A DNA stretch of 64,000 bases from a virus (lineage: Duplodnaviria; Caudoviricetes), in IMG/VR virus record IMGVR_UViG_3300025909_000005; one strand, given 5' to 3'. Shown here one piece after another: positions 3,654 through 53,951 of this stretch (within the stretch, counting starts at the first letter, position 1; every line of letters starts with the position of its first letter). The position numbers and the translations under genes are program-made. The notes below the pieces were generated by a model, which did no database searches, was not told where the DNA came from, and was given only the letters and a program-made list of their open reading frames with translations.

Positions 3654-3661
3654 TATAAATA
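3654..3661 (+). promoter_or_regulatory. T4-like late promoter TATAAATA
   Basis: Exact T4 gp55 consensus in an intergenic region; a gp55 homologue is encoded in the window. Confidence 0.8.
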
Positions 3662-3730: not shown

Positions 3731-4228
3731 ATGGCTAACCAAGAACAACTCGCTATCGGTTCGTCCGGTGCCAAGGCAGCCCCAGCCCGCATCGAAAAGC
3801 GTCCGACAGACATGCACCACGTCTTCCTGATCGACTGGAACGACGACGGTCGCCCACGTGAAATCGCAGTCGTCATGGAAGCACCAGACGGCACGATCTA
3901 TGGCATCGAAATCGAGCGCCTCCACCCAATCGACAAGGCCCGCCTGAAGAAGTTCCTCGTGTCCATGCACGCGGACAAGTACCCACTGTGGGAACTTCTG
4001 GCCAACGGTCAGCTCAACAACGGCATCAACCCGCTGGACTTCTTCCACATGAACTACGTTCGTGTCAAGCGTCCTCGTGGCGCCATCCTCGGTGGCGGCC
4101 TGGCTTCGGTTGAGGTCTACTCCGGTTCCGACAAGCAGATCGGCTCCCAGTTCTCTGACCCACGTGGTGCGGTTGTGACGAACGAGAAGCCAGTTCTCGG
4201 CGGTGGTAGCGGCAGCAGCTTCTCGTGA
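3731..4228 (+). CDS. Hypothetical late protein
   Basis: 165 aa with a GGAGA SD and strong codon bias. Confidence 0.8.
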   Translation: MANQEQLAIGSSGAKAAPARIEKRPTDMHHVFLIDWNDDGRPREIAVVMEAPDGTIYGIEIERLHPIDKARLKKFLVSMHADKYPLWELLANGQLNNGINPLDFFHMNYVRVKRPRGAILGGGLASVEVYSGSDKQIGSQFSDPRGAVVTNEKPVLGGGSGSSFS

Positions 4229-4446
4229 TCAAGGAAGTCGACCTAGCGAAGGACGACATCGTCGTTTTCTACGTCGATGTCGGCAACCTGCCTCCAGCTC
4301 GAGTCAAGGAGTACCTTGGGAACATCAAGGCAGAGGTTGCAGCGAACATCTTCGGCACCGAACAGAAAGTCATGTTTGTGCCGCGGGTTCGAGAAGCAGA
4401 CGGAATCAGGCGCGATACTGACATCACGATCATTCACCGCGTCTAA
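4225..4446 (+). CDS. Hypothetical protein
   Basis: 73 aa, GTGA overlap, followed by a terminator. Confidence 0.65.
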   Translation: MIKEVDLAKDDIVVFYVDVGNLPPARVKEYLGNIKAEVAANIFGTEQKVMFVPRVREADGIRRDTDITIIHRV

Positions 4447-4464
4447 GGTCTTCGACCTAGCAAT

Positions 4465-4485
4465 AAGGGCCTTCGGGCCCTTTTT
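4465..4485 (+). terminator. Rho-independent terminator
   Basis: AAGGGCC-TTCG-GGCCCTT stem with a UUCG loop and a T run. Confidence 0.9.
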
Positions 4486-4514
4486 CATTCCCCCTTCTCT
4501 TTAACACGCCGTTC

Positions 4515-4531
4515 ACACGGTAGTGTAAAAT
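4515..4531 (+). promoter_or_regulatory. -10-type promoter with upstream ACAC-N4-GTGT palindrome
   Basis: ACACGGTAGTGTAAAAT, with a similar architecture at 6785 and 20619. Confidence 0.45.
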
Positions 4532-4602
4532 GTTCTTTCAGCTGATGAAGGCTGAGGCAAGTACTTTGCCCTTTCCAGGTCAGAGCAACTACAGGAGATC
4601 AG

Positions 4603-5229
4603 ATGACAAAGGTAATCGCAATCATGGCGCTAGTCGTGACGGCAGCCACATCCGCAGCGTACAAGCTTTACCAGTACGTCCCACAACCCGTTCCAACCGC
4701 CGTCATCGGCGAAAAGCAAGAGAAGACCCTCGGTGGTTCCGCCGCAGTTCTGCTGCCCGAGAACCTGAACAACAAACAGGCCGTGCTACTGAACTCAGCC
4801 TACGCCATCGCCAAGGCAGAAGGCTTCAAGAACCCTGAGATCGTGCAGAGCATCCTACTTCAGGAGACACGAGCCGGTGGCATGAAGTCCTACAACGTGG
4901 CGAACGCAGGACCGGACGCGTACTACGGTCCGATGCAGATCAAGCTTGCGGCAACCCGTGACGTGCTCGCACGTGATCCGTCTCTCTACACGAAGTACGA
5001 CTTCCACACCCACACCGACGATGAGGTCAAGGCCAACCTGATCCTCAACCACGACTTCAACATTCGAGTTGCAGTTCGGTACCTCGAGATTCTGCAGAAG
5101 ACCTACGGTCTGTCGGGTGCCAACCTTGTGAACGCCTACCAAGCCGGCCCTGGTGGACTCGGCACTTCAGACGGCTCCTACGCACGTGGAGCTGCAGAGA
5201 AGCTGGCGGCGTACAAGCACAGGACGTAA
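4603..5229 (+). CDS. Lytic transglycosylase (SLT/lysozyme-like) with an N-terminal signal/anchor
   Basis: LLQET catalytic-Glu motif, GPMQI and AYQAG motifs; hydrophobic Ala-rich N-terminus; AGGAG SD. Confidence 0.75.
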   Translation: MTKVIAIMALVVTAATSAAYKLYQYVPQPVPTAVIGEKQEKTLGGSAAVLLPENLNNKQAVLLNSAYAIAKAEGFKNPEIVQSILLQETRAGGMKSYNVANAGPDAYYGPMQIKLAATRDVLARDPSLYTKYDFHTHTDDEVKANLILNHDFNIRVAVRYLEILQKTYGLSGANLVNAYQAGPGGLGTSDGSYARGAAEKLAAYKHRT

Positions 5230-5232
5230 ATA
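5227..5232 (+). promoter_or_regulatory. Late-promoter core TAAATA (formed by stop codon + ATA)
   Basis: Sits immediately upstream of the MKVSDLLE/MKVSELLE gene pair. Confidence 0.55.
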
Positions 5233-5256
5233 GGGGATCCCAACCAAGGATCCCAA

Positions 5257-5601
5257 ATGAAAGTATCAGACCTTCTTGAAGACTGCGACTGCTCAAAGAG
5301 CGACAGCGCAAACCGCGATGACGAAAAGCTGGCGCTAGCCCGCAAGAAGACGAAGGACGAGATCGCAAAGATGCGTCAGTCCTATGCCGACAAGCGCCGT
5401 GCACGTTCCACCGAGCAGACGACTGAGGCCCTCGTTGGTGCAGATGGCAAGCTTGGCACTGGCGGTGGCAAGAAGACCGCACCAGCCCAATCGAAGAAGA
5501 CCATTGCCGCAAAGCGTGCAACCGGCGAGATCATGCCGAAGGGTCACTTCCACAAGAAAGGCGAGGACTGGGAGTCAACCAAGGTTACGAAGGCCAAATG
5601 A
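5257..5601 (+). CDS. Putative head-packaged internal protein (MKVSDLLE leader), very basic
   Basis: N-terminal motif shared with the dispersed family; Lys/Arg-rich body. Confidence 0.6.
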   Translation: MKVSDLLEDCDCSKSDSANRDDEKLALARKKTKDEIAKMRQSYADKRRARSTEQTTEALVGADGKLGTGGGKKTAPAQSKKTIAAKRATGEIMPKGHFHKKGEDWESTKVTKAK

Positions 5602-6761
5602 AAGTCTCTGAGCTTCTCGAGGGCTTGAAGGATATCGCCGCTGAGCTTGATGATGAGAAGCACTTCTCCATGGAGAAGATGCAGACATCAATCGAGAATG
5701 GTGTCGTTGTTCCCTTGTCGAAGCTTGACTTCCTTTCAAAGACTCAACTCGCAAAGATCGATGGGTGGATTCATGATAGCGACTGGGACCTCGGCCCATG
5801 GCTCGCTGCCGAAATCCTTGGTCTGAAGAACATGAACCAGTTGGAGCTCGTTGATAAACCATCTGACAGCTCCTACACCAGTTCTTCCTTCGACAACTTC
5901 TCTAGAGCAAGCGGCCTCCCAACTCACGATGAGACCTGGGACGCACTCATGGACTCGTTCAAGGTCACTCAGGGCGAGACTGAGGGCGGCAAGCTCTTTC
6001 ACGTTACCACACAGGTCGGCACTGCTACGCCATTGAAGGGCAAGTCGCAGAGAGTTGTTCTCACGAAGGAGAACGGCAATGTGTGGTTTGCTTGGGCAAA
6101 GAAGCCAAAGGTCAATGAGGCGCTGAAGGACCTCGCCTCGCTGGCAGATCAGCTCAGCGCGCTCGAGATCATCGCCGCTGGTGTGAAGGACCGCTTCAAG
6201 GAGCAGGCCGATTACATGAAGCAGTTCTTCCCTGGAGAAGATCCAAAGGACCATGCTGAAATGGTCCTTGCCAAGATCAAGGAATACAACGGTGAGAAGG
6301 TCCTCATCCTGAAGCCTGATCCTGAGTGGCAAGAATGGGGTCGCGGTAGTGCAAAGTGGTGCAGCAACCGTGTGCAAGCAGTAGCCCGTGAGAACAACAT
6401 CAAGGTGCGCTCACAGATGAACCCATACAATCGTCATGAGGTTGACGTCACGCTGATGTCATCTGGTGCCTCTGTCTCTCCTGAGAAGTTCGACTCCATC
6501 TTCAAGAACGTCGAGAGTGACATCCACGACAGCACCGTCGAAAAGGCGACAGCCCACCTTGACTCTGGCAAGTCGATGACCATCACGTGGGACCAGAAGC
6601 CGAAGAACAAGCGTTACGCCCACTTCTGGGAATCGAATGCTCGCAGCCTGTCCACCTCATACCGTGGTCTGGCTGCCAAGGCCGGCTTCCGGATCAAAGC
6701 AACTATCGACAAGCAAGCGAAGACCCTGACGATCACACCTGCTGACCAAGGTCGCGAGTAA
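5598..6761 (+). CDS. Putative head-packaged two-module polyprotein (MKVSELLE|GLKD... KVNE|ALKDL)
   Basis: Family leader plus an internal VNE|ALKDL repeat at aa 172-179. Confidence 0.65.
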   Translation: MKVSELLEGLKDIAAELDDEKHFSMEKMQTSIENGVVVPLSKLDFLSKTQLAKIDGWIHDSDWDLGPWLAAEILGLKNMNQLELVDKPSDSSYTSSSFDNFSRASGLPTHDETWDALMDSFKVTQGETEGGKLFHVTTQVGTATPLKGKSQRVVLTKENGNVWFAWAKKPKVNEALKDLASLADQLSALEIIAAGVKDRFKEQADYMKQFFPGEDPKDHAEMVLAKIKEYNGEKVLILKPDPEWQEWGRGSAKWCSNRVQAVARENNIKVRSQMNPYNRHEVDVTLMSSGASVSPEKFDSIFKNVESDIHDSTVEKATAHLDSGKSMTITWDQKPKNKRYAHFWESNARSLSTSYRGLAAKAGFRIKATIDKQAKTLTITPADQGRE

Positions 6762-6784
6762 CCAGACTTCAGGACATGTCCTTG

Positions 6785-6802
6785 ACACGTGAGTGTTACA
6801 AT
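6785..6802 (+). promoter_or_regulatory. Extended -10 promoter with ACAC-N4-GTGT palindrome (leaderless candidate for primase)
   Basis: ACACGTGAGTGT-TACAAT, 5 nt before ATG 6808; no SD. Confidence 0.6.
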
Positions 6803-6807
6803 GGTAC

Positions 6808-7815
6808 ATGCTCAAGCAAAAGACACTTGAAGACCTCATTCGTGAGAAAGTATTCCTAGGAGGCGTTAGCGGCTCCGGTTGGTACTACCTCAACTGCCCG
6901 CTCTGCGGGGACTCACGGCTGCGTGGGGGCTTCAAGTTCGACGGTGACAACACGGGCTACTCCTGCTGGAACTGCAGCGCAAAGTTCAAGTACGAGGAGG
7001 GTTCAGGCAAGCTCTCGAAGAACGCGAAGGAGATCCTTGAGGCATGTGGAGTTTCTCGTGAGGACCTGCAGGAGCTGACCTCACCGATCTTCTTGAAGAA
7101 GGCCGAGGAACCGACGATCACGATCGACAACTTGACGAAGGTCAAGACTCACACGCCTGAGGTTGCCTTCCCAGATCGCAGTCACCCCCTGCTCTCCTCA
7201 GTTCAAGAGGACATGCAGGCACCAATCCTTGAGTACCTCCTTGCACGACAGATCGACCCACTCAAGACGACGTTCTACTTCAGCCTCGACCCGAAGTTCC
7301 TACGTCGAGTCATCATCCCCTACTGGCGTGATGGCAAGCTCATCTACTGGCAGGCCCGAACGATCGATGAAGGTGTGAAGCCGCGCTACAGAAACTGCGA
7401 GATTGCCAAAGATGCAGTCATCTACGGTTACGACAAGCTGTTCACGCACGAGAACTCTCCGCTGTTCGTGACCGAAGGCGTCTTCAACGCGATCATGGTC
7501 GATGGCATCTCCGTGATGGGTGCCACGCTGAACGCATCGAAGATCGAGCTACTGAAGAAGACGAAGCGGCGCCTGATCTTCGTTCGTGACCGTGACTCTC
7601 AAGGAGACGTCCTCTCGAAGCAGGCGCTTGAGAACGGGTGGGAAATCACCACCGTGGACAAGCGAGTGAATGACATCAACGAATCAGTAACCACATTTGG
7701 GTTGCCCTACACCGCGTACAGCCTCATATCCAACGCGCAGCGACCATCTGACAAGTTACAATCTTCTGTTAGCCTGGATATTTGGGGCCTGGAAGACCGA
7801 CTGAGAAAGCGATAA
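6808..7815 (+). CDS. gp61: DNA primase (gp61-like, TOPRIM)
   Basis: Zn finger CPLC...CWNC, EGVFN and DRD TOPRIM motifs; lies next to the helicase. Start chosen at ATG 6808. Confidence 0.88.
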   Translation: MLKQKTLEDLIREKVFLGGVSGSGWYYLNCPLCGDSRLRGGFKFDGDNTGYSCWNCSAKFKYEEGSGKLSKNAKEILEACGVSREDLQELTSPIFLKKAEEPTITIDNLTKVKTHTPEVAFPDRSHPLLSSVQEDMQAPILEYLLARQIDPLKTTFYFSLDPKFLRRVIIPYWRDGKLIYWQARTIDEGVKPRYRNCEIAKDAVIYGYDKLFTHENSPLFVTEGVFNAIMVDGISVMGATLNASKIELLKKTKRRLIFVRDRDSQGDVLSKQALENGWEITTVDKRVNDINESVTTFGLPYTAYSLISNAQRPSDKLQSSVSLDIWGLEDRLRKR

Positions 7816-7818
7816 AGC

Positions 7819-9174
7819 ATGAACGTTCCACTGATGGATGAAGACGCGCAGCGTCTCTACATCAACTCGATGATCTCGAACCCTGAGCTCTTTACTCAGG
7901 TGAACGCGATCCTTCGTCCGACGTACTTTGACCCGCACCTTGCGAAGGGCGTCAAGTACTTGCAGGACTACTTCTACGAGAATCACGCGGTGCCTGATGC
8001 AGCGATCTACAAGGTCGCAACGAAGCTTGACACCGAGTTTACACCGCTCCTTCCTGCAGACAAGGAGTTCGTGGCGAACCAGATCGCCGAGTTCTGCAGG
8101 TTCCAGGCCTGCATCGACGTGATCAAGAAGTCTACGGGCAAGGACGGCTACTTCGAGAAGGGCGACCTCGGTTCGATGGTCGCTGAGATGAAGAAGGCGT
8201 CTGAGATTGGTCTCGACACCGACTTCGGCATCAACTACTTTGAGAACGTCATGGAGCGCCTCGTGAACAACGAGGTTGAGGACCCTGTCATCTCAACTGG
8301 CTGGACCACGATCGACGAGGTGATCGGTGGAGGCATCGGTCTTGAGGAGCTTGTGCTCTTCCTGGCTCCATCTGGCGGTGGTAAGTCGGTCTCGATGCTG
8401 AACCTTGCATACAACCTTCTCGAGCAGGGCTACGACGGCGTCTACATCTCGTTGGAAATGCGGGACACGAAGGTCTCCAAGCGCGCCGACCAGATGATTG
8501 CGCGGATCGCCAGCAACCAGATCCCAGACAACAAGGCGATCGTTGCAGATGAGATTGAGAAGTTCCACCAGAAGTCTGGTGCCGACTTCTTCATCAAGCG
8601 CATGCCTGCGGGTACGACGAATGCGAACGACATCATCGCGTACATCCGCAAGCTCAAGGCGGCAGGTCACCTCAAGAAGCTGGGCTTCATCGTCGTTGAC
8701 TACCTCGACATCATGGCACCAGTCCAGCGTGGCGCTGGCGAGTCGATGTTTCTGAAGGACAAGTACGTCTCTGAAGAGGTCCGTGAAATCGGCCACCTCT
8801 TCAAGTGTATCATGATCTCGGGCTCTCAGCTCGAGAAGGGCGCGACGGAGAAGATCAACGACGGTCAGAAGATGCACCAAGGTAACGTCCAAGGTGGCTC
8901 CTCGAAGACAAACACGGCCGACTTGATGATCGCAACGGTGAAGACAGACGCAATGCACGAGGCAGGCGAGTACCGCTTCGAGTTCCCGAAGGCACGCAAC
9001 TCGGATGCAGGAACCAAGCAGGTCACGATGGCTTGGAACAAGGTAACCCTGAAGATCTCGGACCTGGGGACCCAGCTTGTTCTCAAGAAGAAGGCGAGCA
9101 GCCTGACCCTAACCGCAGGAAAGCCAGGAGAGAAGAAGCAGACCCTCGATGAGTTCGCAAAGAAGTTCGAGTGA
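7819..9174 (+). CDS. gp41: DnaB-like replicative helicase (gp41-like)
   Basis: Walker A APSGGGKS, YISLEM, VVDYLD and SGSQL motifs. Confidence 0.93.
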   Translation: MNVPLMDEDAQRLYINSMISNPELFTQVNAILRPTYFDPHLAKGVKYLQDYFYENHAVPDAAIYKVATKLDTEFTPLLPADKEFVANQIAEFCRFQACIDVIKKSTGKDGYFEKGDLGSMVAEMKKASEIGLDTDFGINYFENVMERLVNNEVEDPVISTGWTTIDEVIGGGIGLEELVLFLAPSGGGKSVSMLNLAYNLLEQGYDGVYISLEMRDTKVSKRADQMIARIASNQIPDNKAIVADEIEKFHQKSGADFFIKRMPAGTTNANDIIAYIRKLKAAGHLKKLGFIVVDYLDIMAPVQRGAGESMFLKDKYVSEEVREIGHLFKCIMISGSQLEKGATEKINDGQKMHQGNVQGGSSKTNTADLMIATVKTDAMHEAGEYRFEFPKARNSDAGTKQVTMAWNKVTLKISDLGTQLVLKKKASSLTLTAGKPGEKKQTLDEFAKKFE

Positions 9175-9190
9175 CCTCACTTTCTGATCG

Positions 9191-9197
9191 ATAAATA
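9191..9197 (+). promoter_or_regulatory. Late promoter ATAAATA
   Basis: Intergenic, 35 nt upstream of ATG 9233. Confidence 0.7.
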
Positions 9198-9232
9198 GCC
9201 CCATCGAATAACCAAACCCAAAGGACTCCACC

Positions 9233-9520
9233 ATGGAACCAACACGCACCATCACCCTCGACGGCATCTCGTACGACGTTACCCAGTTCTCGCAGGGTGT
9301 CCAACAGGCGGTCATGATCTACAACAAGTTTTCTGCGCAGCTGCAGGACCAGCAGCTCGAGGTCATGAAGACCCAGGCCGCCATCTCCCAGGTCGGCAAC
9401 CAAATCTCCGAGGCAGTTCAGAAGGAACTCGCTGCGAAGAAGGCTGCTGCAGCACCGGCCGCAAATGATCAGGTCGAAGACGCACAAGTTGCGAACGGTG
9501 CCGATCACCACCCAGTCTGA
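9233..9520 (+). CDS. Small coiled-coil hypothetical protein
   Basis: 95 aa, AAGGA SD, flanked by a late promoter and a terminator. Confidence 0.8.
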   Translation: MEPTRTITLDGISYDVTQFSQGVQQAVMIYNKFSAQLQDQQLEVMKTQAAISQVGNQISEAVQKELAAKKAAAAPAANDQVEDAQVANGADHHPV

Positions 9521-9528
9521 GCGCCACA

Positions 9529-9546
9529 AGCATTAGTGGCTAGATA
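9529..9546 (+). repeat. 18-bp dispersed intergenic repeat, copy 2
   Basis: Identical to 3606..3623. Confidence 0.85.
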
Positions 9547-9570
9547 AGGGGCACTGAGTGCCCCTTTGTT
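9547..9570 (+). terminator. Rho-independent terminator
   Basis: GGGGCAC-TGA-GTGCCCC-TTTGTT. Confidence 0.8.
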
Positions 9571-9581
9571 GTACCTGGCTC

Positions 9582-9588
9582 ATAAATA
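9582..9588 (+). promoter_or_regulatory. Late promoter ATAAATA, 5 nt before ATG 9594
   Basis: Consensus match directly after the terminator. Confidence 0.7.
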
Positions 9589-9593
9589 GGCGC

Positions 9594-10013
9594 ATGAAAC
9601 TCAAAGATCTCCACGAAGCCAGCATCCTTGGCCGAATCTCCAAGGACTACGACGCAGATGACGCACTCGTCTACCTGCTCTTCCTTGCCACCTCAGACAT
9701 CGGTGATGTTCGGCGTCAAGTTGATCAGAATGAAGACCTGCCAGAGAGCAAGCGCGTCATCGACGGTTCGATCTACGCAGTCTACGAGAAGTTCATTCCG
9801 TACAAGCTGCACAGCATGACGGAGCACCAGAAGGAAGAGCTCTACGACAAGATCTGCCAGGACGAGATTCCATCTCAAACTTCTGACGAGTCTGTCGATG
9901 TGCTGCTTGACCTGGATGGAGACGTCTCAGCGGTCTACACGAACTATGACAAGCGCGAGAAGTTCCCGCACAAGGTTCTGACCATTGAGCTTGACGAGGG
10001 CTACTCAGCATGA
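9594..10013 (+). CDS. Putative head-packaged protein (MKLKDLHE|A leader)
   Basis: Start re-assigned to ATG 9594; leader variant of the family. Confidence 0.6.
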   Translation: MKLKDLHEASILGRISKDYDADDALVYLLFLATSDIGDVRRQVDQNEDLPESKRVIDGSIYAVYEKFIPYKLHSMTEHQKEELYDKICQDEIPSQTSDESVDVLLDLDGDVSAVYTNYDKREKFPHKVLTIELDEGYSA

Positions 10014-10438
10014 TCCTCGAGGATCTCAAGAAGCTTTCTGCGGTCGCTGATGCTGGCGGTGGTGAGATCCACGTGATCCCTATCACTGAGAAGATCATCA
10101 ATGAAGCTGTTGACTGGGATTGGCGGCCAGGTCATGGTGAAGCGACCATCCATTCTTGGCTGATGACTCAGGGCACCTTCAAGAAGCTTACCTTTGCTGA
10201 CTCAGCAAAGGAGTTCAATGAGAAGCCTGGCATGAGGAAGCGCCACTTTCAACAGCAGCTTGAACGACCAAGCGCCAAGGAAGTTTCTGAGAACCACATC
10301 AAACAAGGCACGGCCTTCGTGACTTTCAAGTACGCCACGCCAATTGCCGCCTTCGATAAGAAGGGCGGTGAGAAGCTCAAAAACGTCTACTTCATCGACA
10401 TCGATGACTCGTGGACTGACCGGGACATTCCAGACTAA
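10010..10438 (+). CDS. Hypothetical protein, possibly head-packaged (IINE|A site)
   Basis: 142 aa, ATGA overlap. Confidence 0.6.
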   Translation: MILEDLKKLSAVADAGGGEIHVIPITEKIINEAVDWDWRPGHGEATIHSWLMTQGTFKKLTFADSAKEFNEKPGMRKRHFQQQLERPSAKEVSENHIKQGTAFVTFKYATPIAAFDKKGGEKLKNVYFIDIDDSWTDRDIPD

Positions 10439-23702: not shown

Positions 23703-25289
23703 TTACAAAGATTGGACATATGCAAGAGACGCTCGTGCGCGCTTGAGCCAGCCAGCCAGATACTTGATCCGGTTAGGGTTCTTCGTGACAATGTTCTGCA
23801 TGAACTTGACGCGTGCCGTAGCCAGAGCCACGGCCGAGTCAGCATCACTGAGGGCGGCGATGTTCGCGTCCCTTAGAATGCTCGCGGCATTTCCATTTCC
23901 ATGGAGATAGTTGCAGTCGAAGAGCATGATTGCCGTCTTCGGCTTTGACGTTGCCAGGTCTGCAGGACCGTGGTTCAGCCAGTAGTTGTTGTAGCCGGTC
24001 TTCTTTGCAGGGTCATAGGGCATGGTCGTCACCTTGATAGATGGGTTCGGGCCCTGTGCGATGCCAAACTTCGTCTCACCACCTGGGAAGTTAGGTGTGT
24101 TGACGTAGCCGTCCTTCTTCTGTTGTGCTGTTGTTTCGATCAGACCAGCGGCAATCTCTGGATCTGAGGGTGAGCTTTGGGTCCACGCCGGACCAACCTC
24201 GTAGGTCATCGTGAAGTACCATGCACGCTCGAATGGATCCGTGATTGGTGACGATGGAACGTCAACAGGATCTGGAGCAGATGGGTCTCGTGGGTAATCT
24301 GGGCCAAAGGCCGCGCAGCCGTTCTGCTTTGCGTCTACGGTCTGCGGTGTGAGAACGCCGTTTTGAGTTTGAGGGGTGATCGTGCCCTTCGCGGTGTTGT
24401 CTGGGTTCGTGGCCTGTGCGACCTTGACCTGGCCACGAATGTACGGCAGTGGGTCAGTGATCATGCCGCTTGGCAAGAACATCTGGAAGTGGAGGTGCGG
24501 GCCCGTGGAAACACCGGTGTTGCCTTCCTTGCCGATCTTCTGACCAGCTACGACCTTCTGATCCTGCGCCACGTAGATCGAATCCAAGTGGCAGTACATC
24601 GTCGTGCAGAGGTGCTTACCTTGGCCGTTCAGGTGCTTGACCTTGATGTAGTTGCCTTCTGCACCACCTTGACCAGCAAAGATCACGACACCATCCGCGG
24701 CAGCAAGCACGTCGGCAGGCGGCAGCGGCTTCACAGAGAAGTCCACGCCATGGTGGTTGCTCGAGGCGCCAGTCGTTGGTGAGACACGAGGACCGAAGCG
24801 AGAGCTCACGTGCGCACCAGGCAGCGGGTGGACGAACGTGATGTCGTTCTTGCCAGTGCTTGGAGTTGCCGAGAAGGTGAAGGAGCGTGAGTCAACTACG
24901 CCTGCGTCGTCTGAGACGGTGACGAGCAGCGTGATTGGCTTGCCTTGAGCAGAGAGTGGGAACGTACCTGAGAGCAGACCTTGCGGGGTGAGCGTGATGC
25001 CTGACCAGCTTTGATCCATCGTCCAAGTCAGGTTGATGCTGTCAGAGCCAGGCGTCATCGTGAACTGCACGCTGACCGAGCAGTCAGCATGAACAGGAAT
25101 CTCGGTGTTCAGGATCTTGTTCTTCGGGTAGTCTGTCTTGTCGTCAAGCAGACCCGTGTCATTGCCAGACCGGGCCGCGTAGCAGTCAGCGCTCTCTCCT
25201 GGAAGGATCGAGGTGTCCTGTGCGTGGTAGTCAGCGTTGCTTGACCCACCGACAGAAATCTTGGGAACTTCTGGGCAGCACGCGGCCAT
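23703..25289 (-). CDS. Multi-domain lysin: Ig-like + M23 peptidase + GH108-like muramidase + PG-binding
   Basis: M23 motifs HHGVD, YCHL and STGPHLHF; GH108 motif GGETKFGI; C-terminal YLAGWLKR. Confidence 0.82.
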   Translation of the reverse strand: MAACCPEVPKISVGGSSNADYHAQDTSILPGESADCYAARSGNDTGLLDDKTDYPKNKILNTEIPVHADCSVSVQFTMTPGSDSINLTWTMDQSWSGITLTPQGLLSGTFPLSAQGKPITLLVTVSDDAGVVDSRSFTFSATPSTGKNDITFVHPLPGAHVSSRFGPRVSPTTGASSNHHGVDFSVKPLPPADVLAAADGVVIFAGQGGAEGNYIKVKHLNGQGKHLCTTMYCHLDSIYVAQDQKVVAGQKIGKEGNTGVSTGPHLHFQMFLPSGMITDPLPYIRGQVKVAQATNPDNTAKGTITPQTQNGVLTPQTVDAKQNGCAAFGPDYPRDPSAPDPVDVPSSPITDPFERAWYFTMTYEVGPAWTQSSPSDPEIAAGLIETTAQQKKDGYVNTPNFPGGETKFGIAQGPNPSIKVTTMPYDPAKKTGYNNYWLNHGPADLATSKPKTAIMLFDCNYLHGNGNAASILRDANIAALSDADSAVALATARVKFMQNIVTKNPNRIKYLAGWLKRARASLAYVQSL

Positions 25290-25679
25290 TTAGTGAACCT
25301 TAGTAGGCTTCATCTGAATTGTGATCCATGCAATACGAGGACCCTCTGAAAAGTGCATGCTCATGTGAAGTGGCAGACTTTTCTGTAGGTCCTTTATTGC
25401 TGCGCGGAGGCTCGCCTGCATGTCAACATCGTCTGAAACAGCGGTAACTTTTAGAGTTTGCGAGTCATGATCTTTCTCGTGGCGTGCTGACGTTCCAGCG
25501 TCGCTGTACGTGTCGTCCAGGAGTAGATTGTATTTTCGAAGAATCTTGCGCGCGCCCTTAGTCATCTCAACACCCCACTTGTCGAGACGACCAGTGAAGT
25601 GACCAAATTCTTCAGGTGCGTTCTCGTCGTAGTCCTTCGAGAGATCCTTCAGGCCTTCAAGAAGCTCATCAAGTTTCAT
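25290..25679 (-). CDS. Putative head-packaged protein (MKLDELLE|GLKDLSKDYD)
   Basis: Family leader plus the LKDLxKDYD motif; inserted between spanin and lysin. Confidence 0.65.
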   Translation of the reverse strand: MKLDELLEGLKDLSKDYDENAPEEFGHFTGRLDKWGVEMTKGARKILRKYNLLLDDTYSDAGTSARHEKDHDSQTLKVTAVSDDVDMQASLRAAIKDLQKSLPLHMSMHFSEGPRIAWITIQMKPTKVH

Positions 25680-37900: not shown

Positions 37901-38892
37901 AAGCCCGTCATAGAGCCGGCCAGCGTGTACGTCAGGGAGTCGGGATCAAGAACGGTGAGAGTGAACTCCTCAGCGTCAGAGCCACCACCCGTGATGTCTG
38001 TGACAGACGTGTAGGCGTCGGCAACGTCCTTGAAGACGAGCGCACCAGACTCGTAGATCTCCATGTCGCTGAAGTGGCGCAGGGCCAGCGAGGAGGTCAG
38101 CAGCTCAATCTTCTCCTGAACGCCATCACGTGCCTGCACGATGTCAGGGTTTGCAGAGGCGCCCATCCAGGCCAAGAGAGCTTCGTAGCTGGTTGGCAGG
38201 TCAGGAATTGCGATGATAGCGAACAAAGCATCGAGCTCTCGCTGTACGTCTGCATCACCGCCAACGTCAGTCACCACCGTTTGGATGTCGTTCAGGATCT
38301 TCGTGATCTGGCTGATCGCGCTCAGGGGGTTGGTCGTATCGAGCGCAGCGGCTCGTGCAATGTTCGTGGCCTCGGTGATGATGCCATCCTCGTTGGACGG
38401 GATCCACAGAGGATCAAATGGGCTTGACGAGTTGCCGGTGCCTGAGTACGTCTGCTTGATCTGAAACTGGAACGAGCCGTGGCTCTGGAAGAAGTCAACC
38501 GATTCCGTCTGCGGCTCGAGCAGACCAGCCTTCTTCACGAAGACCTGGTTCACGCCAATGGCGTCGAAGCTCTTCTTGGAGTAGACGTATGGGACCGTTG
38601 GCAGGTCGGTGTTCTCGTCCTGTCCCACCGTGAAGGTTCGAGTACGCATGAACGGCGACTGAACGCGGTGTGCAGGGAACGAACGATACAGCGGGTTCGC
38701 GCCAGAGAAGTAGTTGAAGGTCCAGGCAGGGCTGATCTTTGTCTTGATCAGCAGCTTCTCTGTGATCTTGACGTTGACGTCCTCAAAGAACTGGTACTCC
38801 TCAACGATCTCCGTCAACTTGGAGTGGTACGGCTTCGTGTCGTTGATGTAGTCAACAAGACTCTGGACGTAGAGGCTGTTCTTATTTGTCAT
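34921..38892 (-). CDS. Large baseplate/tail structural protein
   Basis: 1323 aa, beta-rich with FxxGDxF repeats, inside the baseplate operon. Confidence 0.75.
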   Translation of the reverse strand: MTNKNSLYVQSLVDYINDTKPYHSKLTEIVEEYQFFEDVNVKITEKLLIKTKISPAWTFNYFSGANPLYRSFPAHRVQSPFMRTRTFTVGQDENTDLPTVPYVYSKKSFDAIGVNQVFVKKAGLLEPQTESVDFFQSHGSFQFQIKQTYSGTGNSSSPFDPLWIPSNEDGIITEATNIARAAALDTTNPLSAISQITKILNDIQTVVTDVGGDADVQRELDALFAIIAIPDLPTSYEALLAWMGASANPDIVQARDGVQEKIELLTSSLALRHFSDMEIYESGALVFKDVADAYTSVTDITGGGSDAEEFTLTVLDPDSLTYTLAGSMTGFLAFVTPGTYTSPRVSFTLTSLATPPVGQKLALTPYNKITIGTSALREQWNIIKVNPIAHDRPFYGSSHYGHIQDSSGTVGNIDLLDQTLIGDFVMTATDSTHFSVVGPTYYSVAEVGVPFNDGKLGFTLVGPFQAGDKFYFSIANIPAEVQNLDLGYGYDLDAYDNDHLTYADGTTKINFAYDGRFTDYDLTQLNLTLTQAVQDGRYFRVRALPSTSLITTKKDGTSSDFVDLDDATSGVSPDPASNAAARYGAPELELYLSTTFSVDYSDDNFLTSHHIGNVNVGESFSSSTYGISFDLPAGSKPFIAVTAADTTYPRVEGGDVFSFQVVNPLPTLVERPVGLVAARLPRLIMHSDDFFKAPEAKWTVKFDTTTSYTVSNDKGFYSSGNTIPTPGLIAAEGLSYKNDYVHFTIVPNGGIFAGDTFTFNTFDKKPSYLVHGSVTGWTKPATIGEYYWNDKIGFKLNAPVGQLFDTTNSLRTDLPLTYTIREDCPSLIYTFTKTSSGYLVQRSDINVTGFMPATGTFNDKYLSATSTGLTEDVVHLRVIDHGYQLWNSADMVILNPALPPRLPDAGDLVVVEKSEDGRALISITTSTADTSPLDLINIDPRFISTSTNSDIPLSNTSPETAILNGWLPMTDGRYDSVTSIAEYSDPTTLHVFTTAASGETIGKLQQTDATNVNWPIEFEWDEAFFTKYLPLNAQVNLVTIDNSWNELTRVRIAESLRFLIDGGPLAEDHMFEDDANISVVDTTEWSINQTLVDSFNTTIVDGPFTGFLAGYDNLPYDNETTNGFYDLGQPLTAYFLEAQELMALPSPSPTDSARLADLRDLLGDFLVNGSLSQTTLPDFLAALDADTVLTAQNFGFPEQGSAFDIVDRPSTPVATSITDSMVLLSVDNGNTFGTAGYDTGGLDSQTESTSISFIQSAPTTIDVTLPARIFQVVFTVAPQSTPTFSVLLPVQTVPLQVGAQKLAGSYTYQFSFASPTTLQIIVA

Positions 38893-39226
38893 TCTTTGCT
38901 AGTTTCGCGAGCACGTCATTGTGCTTCTGGATGGCGCGCTCCACAACCTTCAGGTCGTCCTCAAGCTTCATGGCGCGAAGCGTGTTCTTGGTGGTGTCCT
39001 TCTTTGCAAGCAGGGCCAGCTCTGACTTGATGGCCTTCTGGCGGGTCAGCAGAGGAGCAAGCGCCTTGTTCTCGCGATTGGTTACCTTGGCCGCGTGCGT
39101 TGCACGGAACCGGACCTCATCGTCCTTCATGACCTTGTAGCTGTGGCCAAGAGCCGCAGCGCCGAGCACGGTTGCTGCGAGAGTGCTGGCAAACTTGCCT
39201 TCTTCCAGGAGTTCGTTAACTTTCAT
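38882..39226 (-). CDS. Putative head-packaged protein (MKVNELLEE|G) with a hydrophobic segment
   Basis: Family leader followed by STLAATVLGAAALG. Confidence 0.6.
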   Translation of the reverse strand: MKVNELLEEGKFASTLAATVLGAAALGHSYKVMKDDEVRFRATHAAKVTNRENKALAPLLTRQKAIKSELALLAKKDTTKNTLRAMKLEDDLKVVERAIQKHNDVLAKLAKNDK

Positions 39227-47835: not shown

Positions 47836-49059
47836 TCAGGACTTGACTGGCTCGAAGTTCGCAAGGAACTTCGCATCGCCGACCTCAAACTTGGCGCCCT
47901 TAGTTGTCGCCTTCTTATCGAAGTAGGTGAACGGCTCATCGAATGTAAAGCCAATCCAATAAGAGCTTAGCGAGGATGTTGGGTCGACGTACTTGATCGT
48001 CACGACCTTGCCAATGGCGTTCTCTTTTTCCGTCTTGAAGCCAAGCATGTCATCCACAGGATGGTGTAGGAACACGTCACCTGTGATCTTCCACTTCTGA
48101 CCTACCTTTGGCGCCTCGTCCTTTAGCTTCGAGAGAACGCCCTCAGTAACTGGCTTTGCCTGGCCTCTCATCCACTTTGCGCCATCTTCTTCAAGGTACT
48201 CACCAAGTTTCTCAAGGTTTTCCAGAGAGCCAGTGAACGTTACAAGAGGGTAGCCGTGTTTGTCCCTGCTCGTGTGGTCTACATGAGCTTCGAGATTGTA
48301 CTCACGGGCCAGGCGATTGACGGTCTTTTCGATTCTATCGTGGTCATATCGACCGTAATCTTCTGGTCGTTGATTCGTCTGGAAGTTGAATGGGCTGAAG
48401 TTTCTAGTTTCGAACTTCCACTTGACAACCTTGTCGTAATCCTTCTTAAGGTCCTTTAGACCTTCCTTCACCTTGTTGGCCCGCTTGGCGTGCTTCCTGA
48501 AGTAGCGCTTTGCTGCCTGGGAATCCTCATCATAGTAGACGTACTCAAGTACGTCGATCAGAGCATTGTAGGTTCCCATCAACGTGAAGACGTTGCCGTT
48601 TCGATGAATGGACCGAGCACCCCAGATCTTGAACTCCTCTTCGATGTCATTGAGGTCGTAGGACGTGAAGTCAATGTCCATGAGCCACAGGTCATCATCT
48701 GAGTCGAAGTCCTTGGCCAAGTCCTTGAGCGCTTCCTGCACCTTCTTTTTCTTGACGCGCTTTGCGCCAGACTTGAAGTTGTACTCAGCTTGCCAAGCGC
48801 GTTCACCATCATCCACTACGTGGAGGAGTACGTCCATCAACCGTTCCTTGGTTCCCTCAAGCTCGTACCTGTAGCCATTGTGAGACAGCACAACGACGCC
48901 GCGCTTCTCAATCGCCTTCACGAACTTATCTTCGTTGGCCTTGTGCTTCTCGTCGTCAGCCGTGCGATCGTCATTGATGACAGCGATTCGCCACTTGTCG
49001 GCGTCATCGTAGTCCTTGGCCATGTCCTTCAGACCTTCAAGAAGTTCGGCAACTTTCAT
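47836..49059 (-). CDS. Putative four-module head-packaged polyprotein
   Basis: LLE|GLKDMAKDYD, VQE|ALKDLAKDFD, VKE|GLKDLKKDYD and VTE|GVLSKLKD junctions. Confidence 0.75.
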   Translation of the reverse strand: MKVAELLEGLKDMAKDYDDADKWRIAVINDDRTADDEKHKANEDKFVKAIEKRGVVVLSHNGYRYELEGTKERLMDVLLHVVDDGERAWQAEYNFKSGAKRVKKKKVQEALKDLAKDFDSDDDLWLMDIDFTSYDLNDIEEEFKIWGARSIHRNGNVFTLMGTYNALIDVLEYVYYDEDSQAAKRYFRKHAKRANKVKEGLKDLKKDYDKVVKWKFETRNFSPFNFQTNQRPEDYGRYDHDRIEKTVNRLAREYNLEAHVDHTSRDKHGYPLVTFTGSLENLEKLGEYLEEDGAKWMRGQAKPVTEGVLSKLKDEAPKVGQKWKITGDVFLHHPVDDMLGFKTEKENAIGKVVTIKYVDPTSSLSSYWIGFTFDEPFTYFDKKATTKGAKFEVGDAKFLANFEPVKS

Positions 49060-49394
49060 TTGATCAGCTGCTTGTCTGAGGTTACAGGCTTGGCGAATTC
49101 GTCAAAGAACTCCTTGTCTTCACCCCAGTGACGTTCGACCATGTCTAGCAGACGATAGTCCTTACCAACGAAGTGAACAAGCGGATTGCCGCCGCCCGGC
49201 CCAACGAGCTCAATCACCTTGGCCTTCACGCCACAGTCATTTGCAATGATGTCAGCGTCATGCTGCGCTACGCTCATGCTCGAGTTGTCGCTGTTCGCCA
49301 GGTCAAGGTCGATGTACCAAAGATCTCCGTACTTCCTGGCTTCGCTCTCAAGATCCTTGAGCTTACCTTCGAGGAACTGCTTGAACGTGATCAT
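49056..49394 (-). CDS. Putative head-packaged protein (MITFKQFLE|GKLKDL), paralogue of the polyprotein modules
   Basis: Leader close to the T4 IP MKTFKEF/MKTYQEFIAE; GNPLVHFVG matches GYPLVTFTG of module 3. Confidence 0.7.
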   Translation of the reverse strand: MITFKQFLEGKLKDLESEARKYGDLWYIDLDLANSDNSSMSVAQHDADIIANDCGVKAKVIELVGPGGGNPLVHFVGKDYRLLDMVERHWGEDKEFFDEFAKPVTSDKQLIK

Positions 49395-53207: not shown

Positions 53208-53560
53208 GCAGTGGCGAACTCGAGGCGCAGGGTGTCCACGATTCCCAGTTCGATGTAGCGAAGGTCAAGAACAGCCACGATGGCGTTGTTCTCAGGAAGG
53301 GCCATGACAGCGATGTCAATAAGCTGAACGCGAGGGTCGTAGTCGACGACCTCCCGCAGGTCTGACTCAACGTCCTTTAGTGTGAGCTGGTCCAGAGGTT
53401 CAAAGGCGATCAGTGGGATGCGCGTGCCAAAGCCAGGCATCATGACGCGCTCGCCCTTGAGAGTGTAGATGTGGTTTAGGAGGTCTCGGTTGATGAGCTC
53501 TGCGCCCTTCATGCCGAAGCCTTTCTTCGCCTTGGTGGAGAAGCCGAGGTACTTACTCAT
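53204..53560 (-). CDS. gp25: Baseplate wedge subunit (gp25-like)
   Basis: DLLNHIYTLKGERVMMPGFGTRI...FEP...YDPRV; start re-assigned to ATG 53560. Confidence 0.9.
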   Translation of the reverse strand: MSKYLGFSTKAKKGFGMKGAELINRDLLNHIYTLKGERVMMPGFGTRIPLIAFEPLDQLTLKDVESDLREVVDYDPRVQLIDIAVMALPENNAIVAVLDLRYIELGIVDTLRLEFATA

Positions 53561-53951
53561 CAAGTTCCCTAATATTGATGCGAACACGATTGGTGGACTC
53601 TGGTTTGCCTGTGTCGAAGTTGAAGGGGTTCCAAGAAGCAAACTCATGTAGGCCCAAGTTCGTTGACTTTGCCTCAATAGTCTTGCATAGCTTCGTCATG
53701 TTCCTGGCAACTTCCAGGTCATGTGCTCGATTTTGATCGTCATCCTCGATCGGGCCCGGCGAGGGGTCCCACTCAGGCACCTTCAGCGTCAAGTAGGAGT
53801 AACCGTCCTTATCGGGCTTTGTCAGCCCGAGGAACTTGTAACCAGGACCGAAGTTCAGTCTCTTAAGGAGGTCGTTGAAGATCGGAAGCTTCGTCTTCGG
53901 TATTGAAGCCTTGAGCTTTGCCAGGTCCTCAAGAAGTTCGGTGACTTTCAT
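53553..53951 (-). CDS. Putative head-packaged protein (MKVTELLE|D)
   Basis: Family leader; inserted between the gp5-like and gp25-like genes with overlaps at both ends. Confidence 0.62.
   Translation of the reverse strand: MKVTELLEDLAKLKASIPKTKLPIFNDLLKRLNFGPGYKFLGLTKPDKDGYSYLTLKVPEWDPSPGPIEDDDQNRAHDLEVARNMTKLCKTIEAKSTNLGLHEFASWNPFNFDTGKPESTNRVRINIRELDE

Follow-up and report, generated by a model that had tools for sequence, protein, structure and literature searches.

A putative capsid-targeting leader on a two-module gene fusion in a hypervariable locus of an uncultured jumbo phage

Introduction

What is a single gene doing with two unrelated protein modules, each headed by what looks like the same short motif? 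The question is raised by one open reading frame (ORF; 5598..6761, + strand), 387 amino acids (aa) long from its ATG start, which lies in a 64,000-nucleotide (nt) stretch of DNA, the window, from the IMG/VR virus record IMGVR_UViG_3300025909_000005. The source is a soil jumbo phage of ~377 kb that is related to T4. Encoded in the window are a T4 gp6-like baseplate wedge protein (848 bits) and a gp5-like hub, along with a primase and a DnaB-type helicase. The nearest cultured relatives are jumbo myoviruses, namely the Ralstonia phage RsoM2USA (42% aa identity), then XacN1 and PA5oct. A relative in IMG/VR, G001 (349,660 bp, 97% complete), shares synteny with the window, with aa identities of 50-81%. 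Here, we propose that the ORF carries a T4-style capsid-targeting leader on a fusion of two cargo proteins, and that the chain would be trimmed after glutamate 8 (E8) and probably cut again after E174, a reading to which we give a probability of about 55%.

The reading draws on phage T4, where the capsid-targeting sequence (CTS) is MKTYQEFIAE (PMC8442874) and the prohead protease gp21 cuts after L/I-X-E (PMC9026906). The first 10 residues of internal protein III (IPIII) suffice for packaging; within them, residues 4 and 7 matter for targeting, residues 8 and 10 bear on processing, and an Asp at P1 of the CTS blocks the latter. Passengers joined to the C-terminal end of IPIII get packaged as well (PMC9026906). 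Across the T-even phages, more than 30 variants of internal proteins (IPs) are described from highly variable loci, and in these the CTS alone is conserved (Repoila et al. 1994, as summarised in PMC3012670 and PMC2839356).

A fusion of two genes that also exists in split form

The ORF opens with MKVSELLEGLKDIAAELDD (residues 1-19), in which leader and body meet at MKVSELLE/GLKD (here and below, a slash marks the boundary at which a cut is proposed), and a related motif recurs at residues 167-184, AKKPKVNEALKDLASLAD, where the junction KVNE174/ALKD has its glutamate codon at 6117-6119. The two motifs and the 166-aa and 213-aa modules that they delimit are as first described. Profile-profile comparison likewise bore out the claim that half A, half B and a further set of modules near 47.8 kb share no likeness beyond a leader region of ~20 residues, a negative that is weak given the very shallow alignments (effective number of sequences ~1), and the same junction grammar was found, as had been claimed, on the opposite strand in ORF 47836..49059(-).

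The history of the junction can be read from sister genomes, metagenome relatives at 92-95% identity having the halves as two genes. When metagenome contigs were scanned for the leader coding pattern, seven came up, six of them 92-99% identical to parts of the window. The contig L008 matches the window over 3936-5585 and 6117-10053, with flanks 93-95% identical at the nt level, and differs in between. Where the window has one gene, L008 has two: gene A, of 153 aa and 49% identical to half A, ends ...WFCWKK before a TAA stop, and gene B, of 221 aa and 95% identical to half B, starts MKLHELTE/ALKDLASLADQ. The stop of A overlaps the ATG of B (TAATG), making them translationally coupled genes. Nucleotide homology between L008 and the window restarts exactly at codon E174, and the alignment of the two DNAs shows an 8-nt indel, together with substitutions, between the fused junction and the split one.

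Neither form is a singleton. An exact-sequence look-up found the fused 387-aa form in six sequence variants, which come from several sources and include one that lies on a contig of 376,619 bp; stand-alone A (P0003, 153 aa) is on three contigs. Stand-alone B occurs as three variants (P0004, P0008 and P0009, 221 aa each) with three different leaders, P0004 alone being on five contigs. It is very improbable, therefore, that the polymorphism is an artefact in which an assembly or frameshift error joined two genes, or in which the split form is itself the error. The shortness of the indel that separates the two forms would suit such an error, yet both forms recur as multiple variants across contigs, the split form shows a complete leader after an ATG that overlaps a proper TAA, and the split module A, at only 49% identity, differs beyond any sequencing error.

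The stand-alone variants also indicate what the junction is made of. P0009 starts (V)KVNELIE/GLKD, so that KVNE corresponds to leader residues 2-5 and the fused junction KVNE/ALKD is a leader minus its Met and the LIE triplet. P0008 reads MKVSELLEGLKDIA and then directly SLADQ..., with module A absent, and is evidently a form from which module A was excised by a crossover between the two LKD repeats. Among the variants, the eight residues before the boundary vary freely, while from A175 onward the protein is 95% conserved and under purifying selection; the first eight residues can thus be taken for a detachable tag outside the fold of B, with the boundary between tag and mature protein falling exactly at Glu/Ala or Glu/Gly. 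Half B differs from its L008 relative by 40 synonymous and 7 non-synonymous codons, which argues that both halves are real coding sequence.

We conclude that the ORF is very probably an in-frame fusion of two cassette genes. The products of this one ORF also occur as separate genes, and half A, swapped or deleted between near-identical genomes with a breakpoint at E174/A, is dispensable. The original prediction of independent modules is therefore borne out, and the halves do occur as stand-alone genes in related phages (P0003; P0004, P0008 and P0009). Its term 'polyprotein' fits to the extent that independent modules share one ORF; the junction, on the other hand, is the remnant of a downstream gene's leader left by gene fusion. 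The four architectures found in the population, the junction as a leader relic and the independence of the halves as genes are new in this analysis.

An 8-residue leader as a proposed clade-wide tag

Each cassette of the window-type locus starts with the same 8-residue leader, M-K-(V/L)-x-(E/D)-L-x-E, which we read as a probable counterpart of the T4 CTS. Seven ORF starts in the window fit this pattern, against 0.02 in shuffled sequence. Two leader types occur in the relatives: G001 has 8 + 8 ORFs with them, in every case at the ORF start and followed by unrelated residues, and RsoM2USA has 3 + 4, partly in tandem arrays (ORF88-90 and ORF254-258). A short leader ending in hydrophobic-x-Glu is thereby found on otherwise unrelated proteins of one phage. 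MKVSELLE shares with the T4 CTS its M1, its K2 and the terminal hydrophobic-x-E and is two residues shorter, and, at 49394(-), the sibling leader MITFKQFLE agrees with the T4 pattern MKTYQEFIAE.

The most direct connection to a virion comes from RsoM2USA, in which ORF89 starts MKTFKQFLSE/S... and has a computed mass of 28.56 kDa. ORF89 (28.57 kDa) is one of ten virion bands assigned with LC-MS/MS (PMC8504454), and this link from the leader to a protein that proteomics detected in the virions of a cultured relative is new in this analysis. The arrays lie in MG752970.1 at 65163-67654 (ORF88, MKLHEISE; ORF89, MKTFKQFLSE; ORF90, MSFKTFLE) and at 164332-167473, where ORF254-256 and ORF258 are leader-tagged and ORF257 is, like ORF89, a published virion band. 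Tandem leader arrays together with published virion bands make RsoM2USA a practical system for studying the tag.

A quite different role would be that the conserved start is no capsid tag at all, and is instead a helix on which a common partner or chaperone docks, a signal for localisation or an element for translation initiation or coupling, on what would be an ordinary late non-virion protein. This would fit the position of the cassettes beside replication genes, the fair similarity of the first codons at the DNA level, the fact that no member of the exact family has been seen in a virion, and the orphan status of the cargo, which forms only two clusters in 1.8 billion representatives. We nevertheless think it improbable. 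Conservation stops at the Glu, as for a removed propeptide; MxTFKQFLxE matches the T4 CTS in length and pattern, with RsoM2USA ORF89 a virion band (PMC8504454); and leader genes in the window lie in units headed by the hexamer TAAATA (see below) together with baseplate and other structural genes. A translational role is further opposed by leader copies that vary at synonymous sites and by upstream RNA that is not conserved, grounds that also led us to discard the idea of a conserved RNA element around the start codons. Capsid targeting by the leader appears likely, if by no wide measure.

Further leader-tagged ORFs in the window start MKLKDLHE/A, with SKDYDAD downstream (9594-10013, +), MKVNELLE/E, followed by a hydrophobic stretch (38882-39226, -), and MKVTELLE/D (53553-53951, -); none of the three has a Pfam match at threshold.

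Proposed proteolysis at the leader and at the junction

A candidate protease is available in the clade. A Peptidase_S77 (T4 gp21) prohead protease is encoded in G001, a second IMG/VR relative, G005, and RsoM2USA (E values from 8.7e-27 to 2.5e-30), and in G001 the order portal, protease, scaffold-like ORF and Gp23-family capsid protein is T4-like. The capsid proteins of G001 and XacN1 have L-A-E/T at the expected maturation position of the major capsid protein, which we take, by alignment to T4, to be that of gp23.

With such a protease, the proposed sequence of events would be as follows. The leader would carry the chain to the prohead core, where it would be removed after hydrophobic-x-Glu, at E8, by the gp21-type protease. 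In the fused second cassette, which has lost its start codon and three leader residues while keeping V-N-E174 before the mature ALKDLAS..., module B would enter the head by means of module A's leader; most likely, cleavage at E174 would then free two head-internal proteins, one acidic (18 kDa) and one basic (24 kDa), which would probably be injected with the DNA. The fused form has no internal start codon, so that proteolysis would be the sole route to free B, if B must act alone as in the sister genomes.

We put internal cleavage at E174 only just short of an even chance. The alternative is a tagged fusion that stays uncut, in which the leader is removed at E8, KVNE/ALKD is a mere relic and a single two-domain protein of ~42 kDa is packaged. 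The junction demonstrably arose from fusing two genes, so a function for it is not required. T4 gp21 ignores many L/I-X-E sites, which suits an uncut chain. A P3 residue (the third before the cut) that is Val rather than the L/I of the T4 motif (PMC9026906) and a poor AlphaFold2 model that runs one helix through the junction suit it too. Weighed against these are three observations: the junction lost Met and three residues yet kept its hydrophobic-x-Glu; all four internal junctions of the module family in the window keep hydrophobic-x-Glu before a small residue; and module B is a separate polypeptide in sister genomes, with equal purifying selection in both forms. We therefore consider the uncut fusion unlikely, though less so than a start with no role in targeting.

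Other points count against targeting followed by cleavage, beginning with the fact that in this phage we infer both processing and packaging. The gp21-type protease gene is verified in relatives only. The leader has 8 residues, not 10, and resembles MKTYQEFIAE only loosely, and at the V-N-E/A junction the P3 valine departs from the T4 rule noted above. In the low-confidence model the junction lies inside one long helix (residues 169-210), not in an exposed linker. The three internal junctions of the window may be copies of one ancestor, and their common KVxE form is, given that possible single origin, not independent evidence of selection. The gene adjoins replication genes, and the cargo is without a recognisable fold or family in Pfam, PHROG, phmmer, Atlas and structure searches. 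Finally, the chitinase, lipase and M23 peptidase confirmed in XacN1 virions have no leader, and the tag cannot, on the evidence of the chitinase and lipase, be the sole route into virions.

Capsid targeting with two cuts nevertheless remains the reading that we prefer. The original prediction, which had taken the motif for a protease site, is upheld in so far as such a site fits the context, with a gp21-type protease in three relatives and a T4 enzyme that cuts after L/I-X-E (PMC9026906); the part of it that made the residues after the Glu a recognition element is considered next.

The LKD core and the 47.8-kb module chain

A six-frame translation of the window contains the core motif E[AG]LKD six times, against a mean of 0.03 and a maximum of 1 in 200 shuffles, and all six copies lie within long ORFs: two in the fusion, three in ORF 47836..49059(-) and one at the start of ORF 25290..25679(-). 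ORF 47836..49059(-) has the N terminus MKVAELLEGLKD, followed by KKKKVQE/ALKD at 48735 and NKVKE/GLKD at 48465, and its three LKD modules are homologous tandem domains.

It had been proposed that LKD(L) is itself recognised, as the P' side of a protease site or as an ejection or chaperone signal; as a general recognition element we reject it. The motif is not enriched in RsoM2USA (one match, equal to the control) and is absent from G001, and in both phages the leaders (MKVxELFE, MxTFKQFLxE) precede unrelated residues, from which it follows that the conserved signal ends at the Glu. The LKD helix has the look of a stretch particular to one lineage, whose copies are shared through descent or recombination. 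The broader pattern K[VLI]xE[AGS] lends no independent support, since its enrichment among the proteins of the window is only mild (8 against 2.55) and the junctions themselves make up three of the eight.

The 47.8-kb chain (47836-49394, -) is also polymorphic among relatives. Its counterpart at L007:1101-2060 is without module 1 (306 aa against 407), a loss consistent with a crossover between leader copies, and at L010:441-1135 a different upstream module stands as a separate gene, from MITFKQFLE/GLKDLAKQVD... to ...AKPVTDDAEIK. The gene at 25290-25679 (-), of 129 aa and starting MKLDELLE/GLKDLSKDYD, lies directly upstream of a 528-aa M23-peptidase/endolysin-like gene (23703-25289, -); in L009 a variant of it has its middle part replaced and is 144 aa long. 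A further member, MKIAELFE/GLKDMVSKQNG... (~140 aa), is on a metagenome contig, L006:365-862 (-), that has no nucleotide match to the window and probably comes from elsewhere in the same phage lineage.

The transglycosylase-primase slot

The fusion sits in a slot whose borders are conserved and whose content is not (Table 1). A gene for a small protein with an IDWNDDG motif and the gene for an SLT-type transglycosylase form a pair upstream of the primase gene in seven genomes; the SLT gene is syntenic in L008, G001, G003, G004, G005 and RsoM2USA, and the SLT and primase flanks are kept in seven genomes while the content between them varies. The upstream cassette's stop codon overlaps the ATG of the fusion (ATGA). 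The slot genes of G001 have no detectable similarity to the window cargo, and an additional 70-aa ORF follows just after SLT there. Conserved flanks with exchangeable, unrelated, leader-tagged genes between relatives are what characterises an IP locus of the T-even type.

Table 1. Coordinates of the slot, its flanks and the parts of the fused gene in the window, with the slot content of relatives.
Feature	Position	Strand	Remarks
Membrane-anchored SLT-type transglycosylase gene	4603..5229	+	conserved left flank; Pfam SLT E=1e-4
TAAATA, T4-late-promoter-like core	5227..5232	+	24 nt before first cassette gene
Cassette 1	5257..5601	+	114-aa basic protein, pI 9.6, starts MKVSDLLE; conserved in L008 (121 aa)
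Cassette 2 (module A) fused to cassette 3 (module B)	5598..6761	+	387 aa
N-terminal leader MKVSELLE	5598..5621	+	proposed capsid-targeting tag; proposed cut after E8
Module A	5622..6119	+	residues 9-174 (166 aa); acidic, pI 5.1; 18.4 kDa
Junction KKPKVNE	6099..6119	+	residues 168-174; relic of module B leader; proposed cut after E174
Module B	6120..6758	+	residues 175-387 (213 aa); basic, pI 8.8; 24 kDa; predicted alpha/beta
DNA primase gene	6793..7815	+	conserved right flank; phrog_47 E=1.6e-37; synteny
ORF starting MITFKQFLE	49056..49394	-	
Slot, window			2 genes, the second the A-B fusion
Slot, L008			3 genes
Slot, G001			4 ATGA-coupled genes starting MKVSDLFE, MKLEQLFE, MKLQELFK and MKVAELFE
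Slot, G003			three ORFs without leader
Slot, the more distant G004, G005 and RsoM2USA			empty

The slot appears to have an expression signal of its own. TAAATA, which matches the T4 late promoter, TATAAATA, in its core, precedes the first cassette by 22-24 nt in the window, in L008 (position 1292) and in G001. The window holds 17 copies against 2.08 expected, an eightfold excess, all co-oriented with the local genes on both arms, and copies also precede the baseplate and other large structural genes. Only one of the 17 window sites has the full T4 consensus, most reading (A/G/C)TAAATA(G/C); positions 3654-3661 were singled out among the sites. The copy 24 nt upstream of cassette 1 suggests co-expression with structural genes, and the slot between SLT and primase with its own late-promoter-like element is, as a candidate locus of this kind, new in this analysis.

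Between TAAATA and the ATG of cassette 1, at 5233-5256 (+), is a perfect 7-bp inverted repeat, GGGATCC ... GGATCCC, which spans the AAGGA Shine-Dalgarno sequence and is kept in L008; it could be a translational gate.

The cargo

Neither module resembles anything we could name. Searches of Pfam and PHROGs gave no match for half A, half B, the upstream gene or the other LKD genes, tblastn and blastn against 50,697 phage records found none, and a word-indexed search and an exhaustive phmmer run over 1.8 billion representatives returned the protein's own cluster and stand-alone A only. The ESM Atlas gave no usable match. An AlphaFold2 model from a six-row alignment was poor, at a confidence (pLDDT) of 50, with half A below 50 throughout and values of 50-80 in half B only. 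VIA-align against 48,161 PDB chains had a best Z of 8.6 over 80 residues, to a generic alpha/beta sandwich and at background level, and Foldseek against BFVD gave none at E <= 0.001. A role against host defences or in host take-over would be plausible by analogy with T4 IPI*, Alt and other IP variants; such an anti-host role, like removal of the leader at E8 and injection of the cargo, is something we infer.

The second slot gene of G001 (L031:15102-15575, -; MKLEQLFE/A..., 158 aa) scored against ART-PolyVal, the ADP-ribosyltransferase of polyvalent proteins, at E 0.0056, with 17.9 bits where the cut-off is 31.2, and this match, being below threshold, was not used. A genuine match would make the gene a parallel to Alt, the ADP-ribosyltransferase that T4 packages.

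Implications

If the reading holds, a short tag in the sequence could be used to read off which proteins an uncultured jumbo phage packages and probably injects. The fused/split polymorphism would be a natural experiment that separates the tag, which varies before the Glu, from the mature protein, which is conserved after it, and would suggest that a leader relic is enough for processing and a single full leader enough for loading. The T4 capsid-targeting principle, already used for protein delivery, would be extended to tags of smaller size and to strings of several cargoes. Since cultured relatives such as RsoM2USA carry the same leaders, the idea can be tested directly. Should the junction prove uncut, the finding becomes one of gene fusion in a hypervariable accessory locus.

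A more general picture, which we offer tentatively and rate somewhat below even odds, is that the clade loads its heads with a large, fast-changing cargo set via a tag of 8-10 residues, switching between coupled genes and protease-diced strings. Fusion would then let untagged modules share one tag and would fix stoichiometry, and recombination at leader-proximal repeats would add, delete and swap modules.

Comparison with known systems

CTS-tagged, hypervariable head-internal proteins are in principle already known from T-even phages. In T4, IPI, IPII, IPIII and Alt have their CTS removed by gp21 (Mullaney & Black 1996, reviewed in PMC9026906; PMC8442874). The proteins described here are like them in having a short leader that ends in hydrophobic-x-Glu on otherwise unrelated small proteins, in the presence of a gp21-family protease in the clade and of a late-promoter-like element upstream, and, for the sibling leader MITFKQFLE, in a length and pattern like those of the T4 CTS. 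Unlike those of T4, the leaders have 8 residues of another sequence and occur on many more genes; and whereas the T4 IPs are cut once only, the fusion has two cargo modules with a leader relic between them. The locus recalls the T-even IP loci in its conserved flanks and leader, its unrelated, exchangeable cargo and the differences between close phages, and is unlike them in lying between transglycosylase and primase genes, in the coupling of its cassettes (ATGA/TAATG) and in that these may be fused in frame or excised via leader-proximal repeats.

Among jumbo phages, the inner-body and ejection proteins of phiKZ, 201phi2-1 and SPN3US are comparable in being head-internal, in a Glu-specific prohead protease, in conserved N-termini among diverged paralogs and in multiple cuts per precursor, the gp21-related enzymes cutting after (S/A/G)-X-E or A-X-E, some at several sites (PMC5694885, PMC9026906). 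Their propeptides, however, are usually >100 residues with a small P3, the present clade is T4-like, and no sequence similarity was found. Another parallel is with the polyvalent proteins of phages and conjugative elements, reportedly the subject of Iyer et al. 2017 and mentioned in PMC7824862, in which independent modules in one polypeptide are delivered with the DNA. Those proteins are large and have known enzymatic domains, in contrast to the two small orphan domains here, which have no Pfam or PHROG match; neither half belongs to the recognised effector or enzymatic domains that are fused in polyvalent proteins.

A further likeness is to an engineered system, the T4 expression-packaging-processing fusions, in which IPIII or the CTS is joined to foreign proteins and, as relayed in PMC9026906 from Hong & Black 1993, a passenger placed behind a CTS-bearing internal protein enters the head. 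The A-B fusion would be the natural counterpart of such a design, polymorphic in the population and with a putative second processing site kept between its two cargo modules.

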